Assembly (NCBI GenBank): GCA_015493615.1
Contig: WGCV01000010.1
Location: 28,836-92,835 of the forward strand
Direction of reading: 5' to 3'
DNA from: Melioribacteraceae bacterium
Lineage (GTDB): Bacteria > Bacteroidota > Ignavibacteria > Ignavibacteriales > Melioribacteraceae
Length of the DNA stretch: 64,000 nucleotides
Shown: one piece after another, positions 27,856 through 34,870 of the stretch
Numbering within the stretch: position 1 is the stretch's first letter
Layout: the number at the start of each line of letters is the position of its first letter
Program-made: the position numbers and the translations under genes
Notes under the pieces: model-generated
What the model was told of the DNA's origin: nothing
Database searches by the model: none
The model's input: the letters and a program-made list of their open reading frames with translations, nothing else

Positions 27856-29187
27856 TTATTTTCTTTTCAATATGTAATTTTTCCCTGTCTGTTCTACTTG
27901 CCATCCGTTATTCAATTCGAGTTTCCAGCCATCTCCCTTCGCTGTTTTATTTGTAATTTCAATTGGCTTTGAGATTATTACTTTATCCCAATTTTTACTT
28001 AATAAAGCTCCATTTTTAACTGTCAAAATTCCCCAATTATCTGTAATTCTAATATTTGGATAAACAGTCCCTAAATCTTTAAATGGCATAATATTCCTTG
28101 GGTCAAAGCTAATATTCATATTTTCAAAATAAATTGTTAAAGTAGGATTCTTGAGAAATTCTATTTCATATTTTGCTATTAATTTTTTGCGTTCGTTTGC
28201 TCTGTTTGTTTCAAAACTTTTTATTTTCTCAAAACCGTAATTATTCTTAATTTTATTGATGATCGCTTTAAATTCGGAAGGATTGATTGGTATGGAAACA
28301 TTAAAAAACTTGGTAATATAGTCGGTTAGGTTTGTTTTTACGGTTATTTCTTTGTTCCAGTTTTGATTTTTCATTTTCATAAAATATCCGTAAACGGGAA
28401 TAGTCACATAGGCAAAAGATCTTACAAATGTTTTATTGTTGTAAAATCTATTTATGGCTTCTATATAATGTTCTTTAAGTTGTATGTCAGTTCTATCGCT
28501 TAAAGTAGAACCGGTATATTCCGCTAATCCTTCATTCATTTCCAAGGCGTTTTCTTCTTCTTTTTCACCGGGATAAAGTTCGTCTCTATAATTTCTAAAA
28601 AATAATGCATTTTGAATATGTTTTTCTCTACCGGTAACATTTTTCGATCTTAATGCTTTTTTTAATGCTTCTAATTCCAGTTTTAGAAAAACGCGCGCAT
28701 TTAAATCATCTAAATGATTACCCGCTTTATTATTCAAGTTTTTAAACCCAAGTTCCGGCTGAATTCTATGGAATAGTTCGTGCGTTAACAGATTTAACCT
28801 TTCATTATAATCTTTCGGCAAAGGCAACATTACCATTGTCCATCTTTTTCCGTTCCAATTATGGGCTGTGTTTGAAATATTGATTTCTTTAGGTAATATT
28901 CCAACGTAAATTTTACCTTTTTTCTTTAGAATACCTTTATCGTCAGGCATATTGGCGAAAATTGTTCGGCTATTTTTATCGACTAAAAGAATGGGACCAT
29001 AGAGTTGGCGGTTCCAGAGTTTTCCATTTTCTTCAGATAAGTATTCTTTCAGGTCTTTAAAAATATGTTCATATTTTGTTATTTGACTTTTACTAATTTT
29101 TACCGTGTTGTTTTGTGCCGTATTAGAAGTGTAACTCAACAAAAAAATTGTAATAAATAAAGCTAATAGTGTTTTGATATTTTTCAT
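27856..29187 (-). CDS. Secreted hypothetical protein with an HExxH motif (putative zinc metallopeptidase)
   Basis: Signal peptide. LLTHELFHRIQPE is the only recognisable motif. Markedly AT-rich. Confidence 0.35.
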   Translation of the reverse strand: MKNIKTLLALFITIFLLSYTSNTAQNNTVKISKSQITKYEHIFKDLKEYLSEENGKLWNRQLYGPILLVDKNSRTIFANMPDDKGILKKKGKIYVGILPKEINISNTAHNWNGKRWTMVMLPLPKDYNERLNLLTHELFHRIQPELGFKNLNNKAGNHLDDLNARVFLKLELEALKKALRSKNVTGREKHIQNALFFRNYRDELYPGEKEEENALEMNEGLAEYTGSTLSDRTDIQLKEHYIEAINRFYNNKTFVRSFAYVTIPVYGYFMKMKNQNWNKEITVKTNLTDYITKFFNVSIPINPSEFKAIINKIKNNYGFEKIKSFETNRANERKKLIAKYEIEFLKNPTLTIYFENMNISFDPRNIMPFKDLGTVYPNIRITDNWGILTVKNGALLSKNWDKVIISKPIEITNKTAKGDGWKLELNNGWQVEQTGKNYILKRK

Positions 29188-29346: not shown

Positions 29347-29790
29347 TCAGCCAGCTACTCGATTGTGGGTTCGTTGTTTTAACATTTTGCTAAGTTCTTT
29401 CAATTTTTTATTTCTATTTTTTAGATTATTGATTTCGCATTGCCAAATAACAACAACTTTCCACCCCTGTATTTCTAAAGATTCATAATTTTCTTGGTCT
29501 CTTTTAATGTTTGCCTCAATTTTTGTTTTCCAAAATTCATAATTAGTTTCAGGAAGTTTTGATTTCGGGCAGTTTTTATGTCCGTGCCAGAAACAACCGT
29601 TAATAAAAATAACGGTTTTATATTTGGGCAAAACAATATCCGGCTTACCTGGATATCTTTTATCATTTTTTCTATATCTAAATCCTTTCGAAAAAAGATA
29701 TTTCCTTACCATAATTTCCGGTTTTGTCTCTTTGCCCGAAATGTTAGACATTATTTCAGACCTTTTATCTTTTGTAAATATATCAGCCAA
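29347..29790 (-). CDS. vsr: Very-short-patch repair endonuclease
   Basis: RSEIMSNISGKETKPEIMVRKYLFSKGFRYRKN...PGKPDIVLPKYKTVIFINGCFWHGH is the Vsr family signature. Overlaps dcm by 8 nt. Confidence 0.9.
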   Translation of the reverse strand: MADIFTKDKRSEIMSNISGKETKPEIMVRKYLFSKGFRYRKNDKRYPGKPDIVLPKYKTVIFINGCFWHGHKNCPKSKLPETNYEFWKTKIEANIKRDQENYESLEIQGWKVVVIWQCEINNLKNRNKKLKELSKMLKQRTHNRVAG

Positions 29791-30805
29791 TTTTTTCTTC
29801 TATATGTCGTTTAATATTATTTGCTTGAGCATAACTAAATTTAGGAGGTAATGCATTTCCGATAAGAAGAGCTAATTTGGTTTTAGGTATGTCAATAGGT
29901 AGTTTGTAATTAATAGGAAAAGATTGTAGTAAAGCTGCTTCTCTTGCAGAAATACACCGGTCTTCTTCCGGGTGTAAAAACCTTCCTTTTGACGGATTTA
30001 AACAACCTCCGGTAATGGTTGTAGAATAATCTTCCCAACGCAATCTTCCATAAACATCATTAAAACCGACATTCGGTTTTTTATGACAGTCCAATGTGAA
30101 TTCCGGTACATCTTTTCTTCCACCTCCGTTTTTAGGGATTTGCTTTATCATTTCCTTAATCCTTGCGGAATGTTTAGGAAAAATTTTATGTGCCGGATCA
30201 TTTGACTTATCGGGTGAAGGTAATTTACCGATAATATCTTTAACGGTAACTTTAATATTTTGACCTTCTGCAATATTTAAATCACCCAAAATAGAACCTA
30301 CTAAAACTAATCTTTTTCTATTTTGAGGAATGCCATAATTACGAACATTGATTATATTGTATTTTGGATTATACCCCATTTGTTTTAGTTCACGGAATAA
30401 TCGTTTGAATAAATAATAATCTTTTAATCCTGGGACATTTTCCATCATTACCGTTAAAGGTTTTAACTCTTTAACGAATCGCAGAAACTCCAAAACAAGA
30501 TTGTTTCTATCGTCTTTTACGCTTCTTTTTTTATTTAATCGCCTAATTGATGAAAATCCCTGGCAAGGAGGACAACCGGCAAGAAGATGTAAAGGTTCGC
30601 CATTTAGTAAATTTTTAATGTTTTGAGTGTCAAATTCTCTAATATCCTGTTCGTAAACAATAGTATCCGGGTGATTAAGTTTATATCCTTTTACCGCATA
30701 TTCGTCAATTTCAATTGAAGCTAAAACATTAAATCCGGCTTCTTTTAGTCCAAGACTTAAACCGCCTATTCCCGAAAATAAATCTATTGAATTAAGTTGC
30801 ATCAT
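29783..30805 (-). CDS. dcm: DNA (cytosine-5)-methyltransferase
   Basis: Motif I DLFSGIGGLSLG, motif IV GCPPCQGFS, motif VI MENVPG, motif VIII QNRKR, motif X GNALPP. 340 aa. Confidence 0.9.
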   Translation of the reverse strand: MMQLNSIDLFSGIGGLSLGLKEAGFNVLASIEIDEYAVKGYKLNHPDTIVYEQDIREFDTQNIKNLLNGEPLHLLAGCPPCQGFSSIRRLNKKRSVKDDRNNLVLEFLRFVKELKPLTVMMENVPGLKDYYLFKRLFRELKQMGYNPKYNIINVRNYGIPQNRKRLVLVGSILGDLNIAEGQNIKVTVKDIIGKLPSPDKSNDPAHKIFPKHSARIKEMIKQIPKNGGGRKDVPEFTLDCHKKPNVGFNDVYGRLRWEDYSTTITGGCLNPSKGRFLHPEEDRCISAREAALLQSFPINYKLPIDIPKTKLALLIGNALPPKFSYAQANNIKRHIEEKIG

Positions 30806-30806
30806 T

Positions 30807-32150
30807 TTAGTTATCTTTTTTCAGTTTTGAAATATTTTCTTTGATGGAGTCTTTAAGTTCAACCGAAAAATCAGGTAACCCAAATCCGGAAAAATGATTT
30901 GAAATAAATAAGAATAGCGCTGAAATAAAAGGCTCTGATATAGATAATATTTTTTCATATCCATTTAGATGTTTAAGCAACAGTTTTTGATTGGAATTAT
31001 TATCTTCTGGAATATCTATTTCAATTGATGAAAGTTCTCTCGAATTCAAAGCAAAGTCTATATATGTTTCATCTTCTAAAATCATACTTGGTAATATTGT
31101 TAAAAACTCAATTGGTGATGGGTTTACCAAACTTGACAGTGAATAACTTGTCAAGTTGCTATTATTCCGATAATTTAATCTCTTTTTAAAACTTACATTA
31201 TTTTTATCAACCTTGTGTAACTTAATTAATAACAGGTATCCAAGATTTTTATTCCAAAATTTATTAAGATGACAATCTGACGATAAAACAAGAAAATAAT
31301 CTTCTTTATGTTTTAAAATATCACCTTTTCTAATGATATTATCTGTAACTTTATGGTACAATCTATAGTGCCATAATTCTCTAATTTTGTTAACATCTCC
31401 AATATTTTCGTCATCAGTTTTAAGTTCTAAACTATTAATACCAATAGATGTCAATTCATATTTAAGTTTTTCAAGAAATATATCAATAAAATCGGATCCC
31501 GATAATTCTTTTTCACCATTCGCTGCTTTTTCGCCGAATAAACTAATAAATTGATTAAAAGATAGTTTTCCGATTTTTATCAAGATATTATCAATTGATT
31601 GTAATGTATTCTTTTTTAATATTTGATTAAGTTTAAATGAAAACAACTTTAATTTGTTTTCAATATCATTCTTTAATTTTTCAACGGAATTTTCATCGCC
31701 TTTTTTTATTAGCAAAATTCTGTCTTTATAATTGTCAAAATCAGATTCAGATAATACATTTGATACCTCATCATCTTTATCTGCTTCAGTAAAAACAGCA
31801 ATTAAACAATATTTGGTTTTTAATAGTTCTATTAAATTCTTTTTTGGGTCTTTTTCTTCGACATCCTCTCCCATATCCCAGTCAAAAATTACAATATCCG
31901 GTGAGAATAAATTGTCCGAACAATAATCAAAGAAAAATGAATGTTGTGAAAAACCAGTTAATTCGTATTCATCTTCTTTATAAAGATTATCTATTAATTC
32001 ATATAAAGCTATATCATCCCAATTACTTCTCTCTAAACTTAATAGATGTTTAAAATTATTTCTGTTGAAAATACTTTTATCATCCATATAATCGGATAAT
32101 TGAATTGCGGGAATTTTATCATCTAATATGCATATCGAATACTTACTCAT
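30807..32150 (-). CDS. Receiver (REC)-domain protein with an uncharacterised ~280-aa C-terminal (putative effector) domain
   Basis: Full CheY signature: ICILDD (D10, D11), PDIVIFDWDMG (D90), LIAVFT (T121), ILLIKKG (K149/150). There is a ~35-aa insert between beta1 and beta3. I recognise no motif in residues 170-447. Its start overlaps the upstream gene's stop (ATGA), and its stop is 1 nt from the dcm start. Confidence 0.7.
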   Translation of the reverse strand: MSKYSICILDDKIPAIQLSDYMDDKSIFNRNNFKHLLSLERSNWDDIALYELIDNLYKEDEYELTGFSQHSFFFDYCSDNLFSPDIVIFDWDMGEDVEEKDPKKNLIELLKTKYCLIAVFTEADKDDEVSNVLSESDFDNYKDRILLIKKGDENSVEKLKNDIENKLKLFSFKLNQILKKNTLQSIDNILIKIGKLSFNQFISLFGEKAANGEKELSGSDFIDIFLEKLKYELTSIGINSLELKTDDENIGDVNKIRELWHYRLYHKVTDNIIRKGDILKHKEDYFLVLSSDCHLNKFWNKNLGYLLLIKLHKVDKNNVSFKKRLNYRNNSNLTSYSLSSLVNPSPIEFLTILPSMILEDETYIDFALNSRELSSIEIDIPEDNNSNQKLLLKHLNGYEKILSISEPFISALFLFISNHFSGFGLPDFSVELKDSIKENISKLKKDN

Positions 32151-34870
32151 TTTTCCTCTTTATTTTTAGGTGTTCTACTGAAATCTATGGTGAAATGTGC
32201 TCCATTCATGTCCGGTAATCTGTCTTTTATCGGAGTTTCGTAAATTTTGGCTTTCATTGAATTCAAATATGTTTTACAAATATATAAACCCAACCCGCTT
32301 TTGGGAACTTTCAAACTATATCCGGGTTCAAATAGATATGGCCTAATAATTTCGCTGATATCAGTTCCGGTATCTGCAAAAATTAAACTTCTGAATTTTG
32401 AATTTATTTTAATCTTAATTTCTCTTTTTACGTTATTTGAATTCTCAATCCAATAAATACTATTATCAAACAAATTCCCTAAGACTTGGTTTATTGCCGA
32501 ATATCTACCGTAAACTTTGAAGTCGTCTTTCTGATTTTCGATACTAAAATCTATGTTTTTTTCTTTCATTCTCCTTTTGAAAACATCATATGAATAATTG
32601 ACGGATTTCAATATATTAAATTCATTATATCGTTCATTTCTTATAGCCCTTAAAGGTCCAAGTCTTTTAAGCTCGGTTTTCAAAGAATATGAAGTTTCTT
32701 TCAAATGTTCCAAATCCAATTTTTCAATATTTTCGCTTTTTATCAGATGTAAAATACTGTGATAAAAATTAGTCGTAATTTTATTGATTTCATGTAATGA
32801 AACGGCAACGGAAATTCCAAAACCGGCTTGTTCAACAAACTGATTTTGCACATCTTCAAGCATTTCAATACTTTTCTTCAATTCTTTAACCGAACTTTCC
32901 AGATTAATTAATCCGTCTTTTCTACCCTCGACGGTTTCCCATAATCCGTCAAAAAATGTATAGGGATCAGTGTCAAAAGGATAATTACTCTTAGCAACAT
33001 TTGATATAAATTTAGAACCGGTTTTTGTTACTTCAGATAATTTTTTAGGATTGGATATTATTCCTTTTGTCAATTTTTTGTATTCATCTCTCTTAGCAAT
33101 GTACCTAGGTTCAAGAATGTTTTTAATTATATTTTTAACCAATAACGATAAATCTTTAAAAGCTTTGTTTTCTATTAGTCCTTCACGATTGGTTTTATCT
33201 GTTAAATCAAAATTAGTGCTTTGCTCTATTTCGACATTTCCAATGAAATCGCGATAGGAAATTCTGTATGTTTGTTTCGTTTTTTCCTCTGTTAGTCCCA
33301 ACCAGTCGGTTTCGGAACCTATTTTTGCATCGAATATTAAAATATTATCTCTATAAATGGACATTCCCCCGAATTCTCCAAGATAATCAGTCAATTCAGT
33401 ATAGTTGGAAATATCTATCCAATCTTTTAATCGATACCATACATCAATATGTAAAAAGAATGCTCCACATTCAGGCACTCTTTTTCCATTTTGCGATCTC
33501 CAATAATTATCATTTGATATTCTTAAATCATAATCGTTATCAATCCATTTTTCCGGAGGAATTTTATCAGTAGGGTGTTTAAATTTTATCTCCGAATCAG
33601 CTATTCCTTTTTCAGAAACTAAAACGTCCAATGTAAAGTTCGGTTCTGATTCCTCGTAAATTAAATGTTTAGGAAGCTCTTCAATTTGAGGGCATTCCAA
33701 AAATGCATTAAAAGGCTTATAAATATTGTTTCTTTGCTTTTTGTTAATTGGAGGGTGCGGTGAATTTAGATTTAAAATAGTTCTATTCAAATCTAAAATA
33801 CTTTCTTCATCCCATTCGAAGCCATCTCGTCCACCATAAATTATAATTTGAGTTCCGGAATCACTTTCTCCATAATCTCTTGAAAGTTTCTGTTTTGATA
33901 TACTTACACCTATACTATCAAGATCAACAAACTCATCAGAGATAATATCGAATTTATCCCAATCTATTTTAAGTACAAGCTCATATTTATTTTCCTTGAC
34001 CTTTGTCCTAATTTCAAGGTGCTTGCCAAGACGATGTGTAGCAAATCTACCGACACCTTTTTCCCCTAATGGTATTCTATTTCCGTGCGCTTTTTTCAGT
34101 TGTTTAATTAAAGCATCAAATTGACCAAGATTTCCAAGTCCTTTTGCTTTTTCCCGTTCTTTTTTGATTTTTTCTTTAATATTTGTTTTAATAGTTGAAG
34201 CCGGGCGTAACCAACCGTTTTCAAGAACATCCTTTGTCATTCCAATACCATTATCTTCAACTAAAATTACGGGACCTGGTAATTCGGGAAATTTATAATC
34301 TTCTTCGTTTAATTTTTTTAAGTTATTTATTTTCTCTATTCTAACTTTGCAATAGGAAGCTTGAGCATCAATTGCATTTTTTATCAATTCTAAAATACCT
34401 ACTTTTTCCGAACCGATTAATTGTTCTCCTAAAACTTTGATAAGGTGAGCATCCGATTTGAAATTATATGATATTTCTCCTTCGAGAATAATCTCATCAA
34501 ATAGTTTTTTTGGAATTTTTCTAACTGCATTTTGTGGATTGTAATGAGGGTTTTCACTTTCAACTAATTTGCCATTTTCATCACGATGTTTGACTGGTTT
34601 TTTAAAACTTTGATAATCTTTAATAATTGCAAAATAATGGTCATTTAATTCATTATCCGGAATCACTTGAACAATCTTACCCGTACCAAAGAATTCACCC
34701 TTTCCGGATTTTACAGGCTCGTAAAAAAGAAAATTGACCGGAAGCTTTTTAAAGTAATTTAAATATGATTTTGGGAAATGATAAAGATATCCGAGGAAAT
34801 TTCGATATTTTCCTCCAGCCCTATATTGTGTTAATATTAATGCTTCTTTTTCGTTCATTATATTTTTCAT
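32147..34870 (-). CDS. Hybrid ATPase/kinase: unknown N-terminal domain + MORC/Hsp90-type GHKL ATPase + histidine-kinase core (DHp + CA)
   Basis: First GHKL module: ELIKNAIDA (161-169), VEDNGIGM (204-211), GEKGVGRF (269-276), then GGMSIYRDNILIF. Kinase core: SLHEINK (His693), LGNLFDNSIYW (798-808), DTGTD (833-837), SGLGLYICK (858-866). 907 aa, no TM segment, very AT-rich. Confidence 0.7.
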   Translation of the reverse strand: MKNIMNEKEALILTQYRAGGKYRNFLGYLYHFPKSYLNYFKKLPVNFLFYEPVKSGKGEFFGTGKIVQVIPDNELNDHYFAIIKDYQSFKKPVKHRDENGKLVESENPHYNPQNAVRKIPKKLFDEIILEGEISYNFKSDAHLIKVLGEQLIGSEKVGILELIKNAIDAQASYCKVRIEKINNLKKLNEEDYKFPELPGPVILVEDNGIGMTKDVLENGWLRPASTIKTNIKEKIKKEREKAKGLGNLGQFDALIKQLKKAHGNRIPLGEKGVGRFATHRLGKHLEIRTKVKENKYELVLKIDWDKFDIISDEFVDLDSIGVSISKQKLSRDYGESDSGTQIIIYGGRDGFEWDEESILDLNRTILNLNSPHPPINKKQRNNIYKPFNAFLECPQIEELPKHLIYEESEPNFTLDVLVSEKGIADSEIKFKHPTDKIPPEKWIDNDYDLRISNDNYWRSQNGKRVPECGAFFLHIDVWYRLKDWIDISNYTELTDYLGEFGGMSIYRDNILIFDAKIGSETDWLGLTEEKTKQTYRISYRDFIGNVEIEQSTNFDLTDKTNREGLIENKAFKDLSLLVKNIIKNILEPRYIAKRDEYKKLTKGIISNPKKLSEVTKTGSKFISNVAKSNYPFDTDPYTFFDGLWETVEGRKDGLINLESSVKELKKSIEMLEDVQNQFVEQAGFGISVAVSLHEINKITTNFYHSILHLIKSENIEKLDLEHLKETSYSLKTELKRLGPLRAIRNERYNEFNILKSVNYSYDVFKRRMKEKNIDFSIENQKDDFKVYGRYSAINQVLGNLFDNSIYWIENSNNVKREIKIKINSKFRSLIFADTGTDISEIIRPYLFEPGYSLKVPKSGLGLYICKTYLNSMKAKIYETPIKDRLPDMNGAHFTIDFSRTPKNKEEK

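Follow-up and report, generated by a model that had tools for sequence, protein, structure and literature searches.

We analyzed a 64-kb stretch of contig WGCV01000010.1 from a Melioribacteraceae bacterium, here called the window, to which all positions refer unless another locus is named. On its minus strand, at 29347-34870, lies an operon of four genes encoding a GHKL ATPase-histidine kinase of 907 amino acids (aa), a 447-aa response regulator, a 340-aa C5 DNA methyltransferase (methylase) and a 147-aa Vsr mismatch endonuclease (Table 1). An earlier reading made from the DNA letters alone (the sequence-only reading) had taken these coupled genes for a candidate undescribed defense system, in which a Dcm-Vsr cassette is joined to a phosphorelay instead of a restriction nuclease. 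The four open reading frames (ORFs) were reproduced at the same positions and with the same junctions, that is, a 4-nucleotide (nt) overlap of the stop and start codons of the kinase and receiver genes, a gap of 1 nt between the receiver and methylase genes, and an 8-nt overlap between the methylase gene and vsr. Of the AT-rich inserted block that had also been proposed, the low G+C content stood (0.26 to 0.32 over 28 to 35 kb versus 0.39 to 0.44 on either side). No convincing flanking direct or inverted repeats were found at its borders. A scan for sigma-70 promoters and terminators, which does not cover Bacteroidota promoters, stayed at the level of shuffled sequence.

Table 1. Positions in the window of the four genes and of the domains described in the text
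Feature	Position	Strand	Basis
GHKL ATPase-histidine kinase, 907 aa	32147..34870	-	HATPase_c_3 and HATPase_c in Pfam
N-terminal beta-rich domain, aa 1-135	34466..34870	-	Confident model; clade-specific
GHKL ATPase, transducer-like middle region and coiled coil, ca. aa 138-650	32921..34459	-	Invariant motifs, Foldseek
DHp helix pair with H693-E694 and catalytic ATP-binding domain, ca. aa 654-900	32171..32911	-	Invariant boxes, ThkA/HK853 matches
Response regulator, 447 aa	30807..32150	-	Subthreshold Response_reg_2; receiver fold in AlphaFold model
Predicted MazF/CcdB-like barrel with GDI ... (S/A)DC(H/D)L motif	30807..31343 (including stop codon)	-	Foldseek and conservation
C5 DNA methyltransferase, 340 aa	29783..30805	-	Pfam DNA_methylase and TIGR00675
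Vsr T:G mismatch endonuclease, 147 aa, TTG start	29347..29790	-	Pfam Vsr and TIGR00632

The 907-aa protein matched two Pfam families above their cut-offs, HATPase_c_3 at residues 158-308 (E=4e-13) and HATPase_c at residues 791-897 (E=2.7e-14), and more than 120 clusters of full-length homologues were found at identities of at least 52%. The catalytic residues of both ATPase sites and of the H-box are intact and invariant in 26 diverse homologues: N165, D206, G208, G210 and the lid PLGEKGVGRFA in the first GHKL site, H693-E694 in the H-box, and N799, N803, D833, G835, G859 and G861 in the kinase ATP site. Three of them (N165, D206 and H693) had already been singled out in the sequence-only reading. 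In the AlphaFold model (predicted local distance difference test score [pLDDT] of 74), the dimerization and histidine phosphotransfer (DHp) region had low pLDDT, as expected of a monomer model. Foldseek aligned the first half of the protein with the ATPase modules of SMCHD1, Hsp90 and MORC3 over ca. 500 columns and its last 250 residues with the kinase cores of HK853 (structures of the DHp and catalytic [CA] domains) and ThkA, the latter also being reached by the DHp-CA part in a sequence search of the PDB (E=1.6e-11). Pfam domains, invariant residues and structural matches together bear out a MORC/Hsp90-type GHKL ATPase followed by a complete histidine-kinase core, and the features of MORC and paraMORC proteins are present as well (GHKL motifs I to IV, the GEKGVG lid and a transducer-like second domain). 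One 907-aa homologue (P0054, 62% identity) carries the NCBI label “Candidatus Lokiarchaeota archaeon”, for which a transfer into archaea or a binning error is possible.

The block formed by the first 135 residues of the kinase was modeled with pLDDT values mostly between 77 and 90 and contains 26 invariant columns, including a YHFP motif. For this domain, profile searching of PDB sequences yielded no match, and when the complete 907-aa model was compared with PDB and BFVD by Foldseek, the GHKL and kinase matches dominated. In Pfam, a minority of the members matched EVE below threshold and in register (best E=0.023). Judged from these sequence matches, the domain may be an EVE/PUA-like reader of modified bases, which we regard as a lead rather than a result. 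It is missing from the kinases of Escherichia coli UTI89, Campylobacter and Rhizorhabdus described below and from those of loci L034 and L036; the distant kinases begin at the GHKL domain.

The only Pfam match of the 447-aa protein was to Response_reg_2 (PF19192), with a score of 17.5 bits against a cut-off of 27 (E=0.005), and 14 of 60 members of its family matched the same model at E<=0.01. Its AlphaFold model (pLDDT 86) consists of a receiver domain (residues 1-166), a helical linker (170-264) and a beta-barrel (270-447). The five conserved receiver residues that had been read from the translation hold up in the homologue alignments. D90, the phospho-acceptor, is one of only two invariant positions across 60 homologues with identities down to 19%, the other being C293 in the barrel; among the 28 closer homologues, D10 and K150 are also invariant, D11 is nearly so, and position 119 is always Thr or Ser (T119 in the window). 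A library of representatives at 50% identity contained 326 receiver-type proteins, and nearly all of the 150 matches listed share the full-length architecture. The phage genomes searched contained no relative of this protein.

When the 447-aa model was submitted to Foldseek, it retrieved receiver domains and, separately, MazF toxins. The barrel matched the MazF structures of E. coli, Mycobacterium tuberculosis and Staphylococcus aureus with a probability of ca. 1.0, E values from 6e-4 to 1.4e-2 and target template modeling (TM) scores of 0.55 to 0.66, the best matches being 1ub4_A (E=6e-4, TM 0.66), 5ckh_B, MazF-mt1 and S. aureus MazF. The likeness to the MazF/PemK/CcdB toxins in the predicted fold of residues 270-447 includes the GD-turn at the first strand. 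Conservation in the barrel region centers on the motif RxGDI ... (S/A)DC(H/D)L, and R263, Y265, D270, R274, G276, D277, P407 and F408 are at least 90% conserved in the 60 homologues; a hhhhxPxCD motif is kept even in the very distant partner proteins of Campylobacter, Rhizorhabdus and E. coli UTI89. At the sequence level, the PDB profile search gave no link to MazF, none of 23 C-terminal domains matched PemK_toxin or CcdB in Pfam at E<=10, and hhalign of the barrel family against MazF/ChpB profiles (2 and 19 sequences) returned probabilities below 1%. Since the sequences cannot be aligned, the catalytic Arg and Thr of MazF could not be located in the barrel. We therefore describe the C-terminal domain as a MazF/CcdB-like barrel predicted from its modeled structure. 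Unlike MazF, PemK and CcdB, it has a motif of its own, (S/A)DC(H/D)L with the invariant Cys, and is accompanied by no antitoxin gene, control presumably being exerted through the fused receiver. No known output domain was detected in the 447-aa protein with Pfam or NCBIfam, and no DNA-binding output match stood out in Foldseek. An ordinary DNA-binding output domain would have counted against the defense proposal.

Relatives of the 447-aa protein were located at 22 distinct loci, by looking up exact proteins and by scanning a single genome for each species. The linkage is obligate, with a GHKL-kinase gene immediately upstream of the receiver gene and a C5 methylase orthologous to that of the window at all 22 of them, so that the association of the two large genes with a methylase, which the sequence-only reading had suggested checking, extends to every locus. 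Gene order varies (the methylase comes first in two loci and is convergent in one), and no further gene is widely shared. The hosts belong to at least seven phyla (Bacteroidota, Aminicenantes, Thermodesulfovibrionia, Spirochaetes, Verrucomicrobiota, Syntrophales and Planctomycetes). The pairwise identities of kinase, receiver protein and methylase are correlated (Spearman coefficients of 0.68 to 0.76, with none of 2,000 Mantel permutations as high), indicating that the three proteins have diverged together, the receiver protein being the fastest evolving (mean identity of 0.32; kinase, 0.53; methylase, 0.57).

Several relatives occupy mobile or defense settings, for instance beside GmrSD and prophage genes or near a resolvase and an integrase, and a distant version was found on 41 Campylobacter plasmid records, mostly conjugative. 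It encodes a 732-aa kinase that lacks the N-terminal domain, a 331-aa receiver protein (with LTPSCDI) and a convergent dcm; at the locus studied, on Campylobacter coli pTet_BCH-10879 (L027, 4983-9413), vapD and hicB genes are close by. On plasmid pUPO218 of Rhizorhabdus wittichii (L028, 5007-9367), a relative of the kinase is found with a 667-aa hypothetical protein containing LVLTPVCDL, and an AbiEii/AbiEi pair adjoins them. Two copies are broken: in a metagenome-assembled genome of Prolixibacteraceae (L026, 4809-10377), the kinase gene is in four pieces, the receiver gene is truncated and the methylase gene is in two pieces next to an intact Vsr gene, while at L011 (5272-8004) the kinase gene consists of two parts. 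Both cases may reflect true pseudogenes or errors of assembly. At three loci (L012, 10358-11194; L017, 11241-12077; L026, 10463-10741), a gene for a 278-aa NOV_C (DUF3883) protein (E of ca. 1e-19) follows the methylase gene. NOV_C/DUF3883 domains are often fused to sacsin-type GHKL ATPases, and the protein may be an optional extra component.

These loci also bear on the role of the barrel, which might be no toxin but an adaptor for DNA, for the kinase or for a host factor (a nuclease or gyrase, for example). The relay would then be real and its effector would lie outside the operon. In favor of such an adaptor, the barrel has no sequence similarity to MazF and no MazF catalytic residues could be aligned, and CcdB, which has the same fold as MazF, acts by binding gyrase and not by catalysis; the additional NOV_C/DUF3883 gene of three loci could be seen in the same light. 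We consider this explanation unlikely, as no partner gene is common to the loci and the invariant Cys, together with the cluster of conserved Arg and Asp residues, suggests that the barrel holds a site for chemistry or tight binding and is no passive adaptor.

The combination of genes, which the sequence-only reading had not recognized as a described system, is not undescribed. In a purely computational study, Bellieny-Rabelo, Pretorius and Moleleki (2021; PMC8011034) reported kinase-like proteins with HATPase_c_3, HEF_HK and HATPase_c domains, 91.6% of them linked to Response_reg_2, in 644 regions with an excess of C5 methylases and Vsr nearby; they drew the link to paraMORC ATPases and left the second domain of the receiver protein unassigned. 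Their Vsr-linked examples include Bacteroides, Chryseobacterium, Prevotella and Akkermansia. REBASE had earlier listed a protein of this kind: the putative restriction enzyme R.EcoUTORF4938P combines an N-terminal GHKL domain with a C-terminal histidine-kinase domain (Orlowski and Bujnicki 2008; PMC2441816). In E. coli UTI89, an island beside cdiBAI and hly genes encodes a methylase together with proteins of 986 and 555 aa, and these UTI89 proteins pass HEF_HK (E=1.5e-25) and Response_reg_2 (E=1.8e-29). The window kinase aligned with the 986-aa kinase in three collinear BLASTP segments (E of 8e-11 to 2e-13), and a profile of the kinase family, made with the window protein plus 25 homologues, recovered it at E=2.8e-38. 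We infer that this 986-aa kinase is R.EcoUTORF4938P.

The window proteins resemble the HEF_HK/Response_reg_2 pairs in having HATPase_c_3, a DHp region with a His-acidic pair and HATPase_c, an adjoining receiver-like protein with no known output, a C5 methylase and, as often there, a Vsr. They differ in scoring below the Pfam thresholds (the window kinase gave no match to HEF_HK [PF19191] even at E<=1, and a distant relative only a weak one, E=0.014) and in the N-terminal domain of ca. 135 aa that this clade has added. Because its proteins fall short of both Pfam models, we regard the window system as a divergent clade of a known kind. As a gene set, the combination is not new. The window adds a further member, whose clade is divergent and has an additional domain at the N terminus, to a class described so far only computationally. 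Among defense catalogues, the earlier expectation was confirmed in that no PADLOC model, those of Detocs included, matched the 907-aa or the 447-aa protein at E<=1.

The methylase matched Pfam DNA_methylase (E=2.8e-59) as well as TIGR00675, and the motifs picked out in its translation (FSGIGG, PPCQ, ENV, QNRKR and GNALPP) are readable there. Its closest solved relatives by sequence are the catalytic domains of eukaryotic DNMT1 (E of ca. 1e-33), ahead of M.HaeIII and M.HhaI. Residues 221-300, taken as the target-recognition region, are the best-conserved stretch of the protein, which speaks for a single recognition site throughout the clade. Vsr was identified by Pfam (E=1.3e-35) and TIGR00632 (E=3.2e-42), both above cut-offs, so that the two adjacent genes, each beyond its curated thresholds, constitute a Dcm-Vsr pair. 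The public annotation contains a shorter, 134-aa Vsr. The TTG start of the 147-aa ORF is nevertheless credible, since the profiles align from residue 1 or 2 and the TTG start with the 8-nt methylase overlap was seen again in six distinct genomes.

Vsr is present in 18 of the 22 loci, upstream or downstream of the other genes. A gene for an HhH-GPD glycosylase lies next to the methylase or the receiver gene at two loci (L007, 12583-13236; L036, 5277-5939), both without Vsr, and suggests an alternative repair route for the deamination of 5-methylcytosine. We considered whether Vsr could be the missing effector nuclease and rejected the idea: it is absent from 4 of the 22 loci, its position varies, and two of those four have the glycosylase. 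Being optional and mobile in position, and replaced by a glycosylase in half of the loci that lack it, Vsr appears to be a repair accessory and not the effector.

The company of repair genes raises the possibility of a housekeeping or epigenetic circuit with no part in defense, in which a MutL-like GHKL protein would monitor methylation or T:G damage and steer Vsr repair or the methylase through the receiver. E. coli MutL, itself a GHKL ATPase, interacts functionally with Vsr (work cited in PMC2292703), most of the loci have either Vsr or a glycosylase, the neighbors in the window are ordinary genes of polysaccharide metabolism, and the authors of the 2021 study favored a regulatory role (PMC8011034). 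Such a circuit would hardly be expected to show the patchy distribution across phyla, the relatives on plasmids, in prophages and in islands, or the AT-rich, foreign-looking block seen in the window, nor the decayed and split copies and the four loci without Vsr. A fast-evolving receiver protein without a DNA-binding output does not fit it either, and we judge it improbable.

As the sequence-only reading had stated, no restriction nuclease is recognizable in the operon: besides Vsr, Pfam, NCBIfam and PADLOC detected no nuclease family, PD-(D/E)xK, HNH, GIY-YIG and PLD among them, in the proteins of the window operon. The BbrUII/HgiDII restriction-enzyme model NF050001 matched the 907-aa protein weakly and only in its GHKL part (E=2.1e-5; 23.3 bits against a cut-off of 550). 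The proven enzyme R.HgiDII begins with a GHKL domain and ends in a domain whose fold is unassigned (PMC2441816), and M.HgiDII and M.BbrUII are characterized 5-methylcytosine methylases, the former recognizing GTCGAC (PMC5867850). The nearest plasmid-borne relative of the window methylase (48% identity) lies in a prophage region of Pantoea agglomerans pPagL15_1 (L031, 6950-9968), where, among phage replication and lysis genes, it overlaps the gene of a 661-aa GHKL protein. This protein reached 304 bits with the BbrUII/HgiDII model (E=1.9e-90), also below the 550-bit cut-off, and BLASTP with the window GHKL module aligned the two at residues 141-344 only (E=7e-8).

Because the HgiDII/BbrUII group includes relatives of both the methylase and the GHKL module, GTCGAC was proposed as the methylase site and tested as a single prior guess. 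It is absent from the window, where shuffled sequences predict 7.2 occurrences and a fourth-order Markov model 5.5, and occurs 13 times in 292 kb from other carriers versus 25 expected; among the 64 palindromic hexamers, its depletion ranks third in the window and second in the other carriers. These counts are suggestive only, and we treat GTCGAC as a candidate site. The window also lacks GAGCTC (8.5 expected) and GTATAC (4.4 expected) and is depleted in GATATC and CATATG, which hints at further restriction systems in the host.

The same relationships could be taken to mean that the operon is a conventional restriction-modification (R-M) system, the 907-aa protein being a restriction enzyme with an unrecognized nuclease site in its middle region whose activity or expression is tuned by the kinase and receiver parts. 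As in R.HgiDII and R.BbrUII, an N-terminal GHKL ATPase gene stands beside a related C5 methylase, R.EcoUTORF4938P has the GHKL and kinase architecture and is listed as a putative restriction enzyme in REBASE, and the hexamer recognized by M.HgiDII is depleted in the carriers. However, the HgiDII/BbrUII family has the unassigned C-terminal domain in place of a kinase core and no receiver partner, and its similarity to the window protein ends after the GHKL domain; beyond that domain, the structures matched by the 907-aa protein are those of transducers, coiled coils and kinases, and no nuclease family was detected. A conventional system would also leave unexplained why none of the 22 loci is without a receiver protein whose phospho-acceptor Asp is invariant and whose extra domain is conserved. 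We consider this explanation improbable too.

The signaling part can be compared with other systems. The classical features of a two-component system are all present (H-box His, N, G1 and G2 boxes, receiver acidic pair, phospho-Asp, Thr/Ser and Lys), and they amount to a plain His-Asp pair and not to a multistep phosphorelay. In Detocs, the DtcA kinase acts with a buffer receiver, DtcB, and a receiver-PNP effector, DtcC, in a working phage defense (10.1101/2023.01.24.525353), a precedent by which a relay from a kinase to a receiver-effector can act against phages. The window system shares with it the His-Asp relay and a receiver protein whose extra domain is effector-like (toxic in Detocs, predicted here) and not DNA-binding. 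In contrast, Detocs has a TPR sensor in place of the GHKL clamp, a buffer receiver, an ATP-nucleosidase effector and no methylase, while the window operon has no stand-alone receiver gene and Detocs homologues were not matched. With the MORC/paraMORC ATPases, the system has in common the GHKL and transducer-like module and the association with cytosine methylases and Vsr (Iyer, Abhiman and Aravind 2008; PMC2292703). Unlike it, the paraMORC families of that paper are described there with helicases and restriction-fold nucleases, and a search of the paper by terms met with no receiver or two-component partner (PMC2292703). The GHKL defense proteins of WASA Vibrio cholerae were also considered and set aside, as VcSduA is a GHKL-Shedu nuclease and different from this system.

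Our preferred interpretation, to which we assign a probability of roughly 45%, is that the operon is a methylation-keyed conflict module, serving anti-phage or anti-plasmid defense, addiction to the carrier element or both, that signals by phosphotransfer to a toxin-like domain. The methylase would mark host DNA at one fixed site, perhaps GTCGAC, and Vsr, or the HhH-GPD glycosylase in some relatives, would repair the T:G mismatches that arise by deamination of 5-methylcytosine and so limit the mutational cost of the methylase. The 907-aa protein would act as the sensor, its MORC/Hsp90-like clamp examining DNA with the possible help of the N-terminal domain. We infer both the signal and the direction of the switch: unmarked DNA, either of an invader or of the host chromosome after loss of the methylase, would cause ATP-driven closure of the clamp, turning the kinase core on and leading to phosphorylation of His693. 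The phosphoryl group would then pass from His693 to Asp90 of the 447-aa protein, and this phosphorylation might free the MazF/CcdB-like barrel to arrest the cell or the invader. This last, specific toxin step is drawn from the modeled fold, and we hold it only tentatively.

Several observations weigh against the conflict-module interpretation. The MazF/CcdB assignment rests on predicted structure, and all sequence-level comparisons with MazF fail. The depletion of GTCGAC is statistically modest, was computed without a non-carrier control and is equaled by other palindromes in the window. The EVE-like assignment of the sensor's first domain is subthreshold, and this domain is absent across most of the wider family. 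The distant relative in R. wittichii has a 667-aa partner and no adjacent methylase, and the genes flanking the operon in the window encode glycosyltransferases and a glycoside hydrolase, with no defense genes among them. Our literature search also found no experimental study or test of the four-gene set.

The flanking genes bear Por-secretion tails, consistent with Bacteroidota. Within the same AT-rich block lies a 443-aa ORF (27856-29187, minus strand; G+C of 0.30) with a signal-peptide-like N terminus and a HELFH (HExxH) motif, for which Pfam gave no match. It was examined as a fifth component and rejected, since it adjoins no other copy of the system.

The family is widespread, with members in gut Bacteroidales and uropathogenic E. 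coli as well as on pTet plasmids of Campylobacter, and hundreds of relatives of the kinase were found. To the earlier descriptions of this class, our analysis adds a predicted toxin-like domain, a candidate recognition site and a probable role for Vsr as an accessory. A further possibility, which we put forward as doubtful, is a nuclease-free immunity resembling R-M, in which the MORC clamp discriminates methylation states at a fixed site and His-Asp transfer controls a new kind of toxin with the MazF/CcdB fold and an invariant Cys. If true, the discrimination of self from nonself by methylation would result in growth arrest and not in the cutting of DNA, and the system would provide a bacterial precedent for the reading of DNA methylation by ATPases of the MORC/SMCHD1 type. 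Should the proposed mechanism hold, the family would offer a tractable model in bacteria for the response of MORC-like ATPases to DNA methylation, and self-marking by methylation could feed a signaling cascade and a toxin rather than a nuclease.

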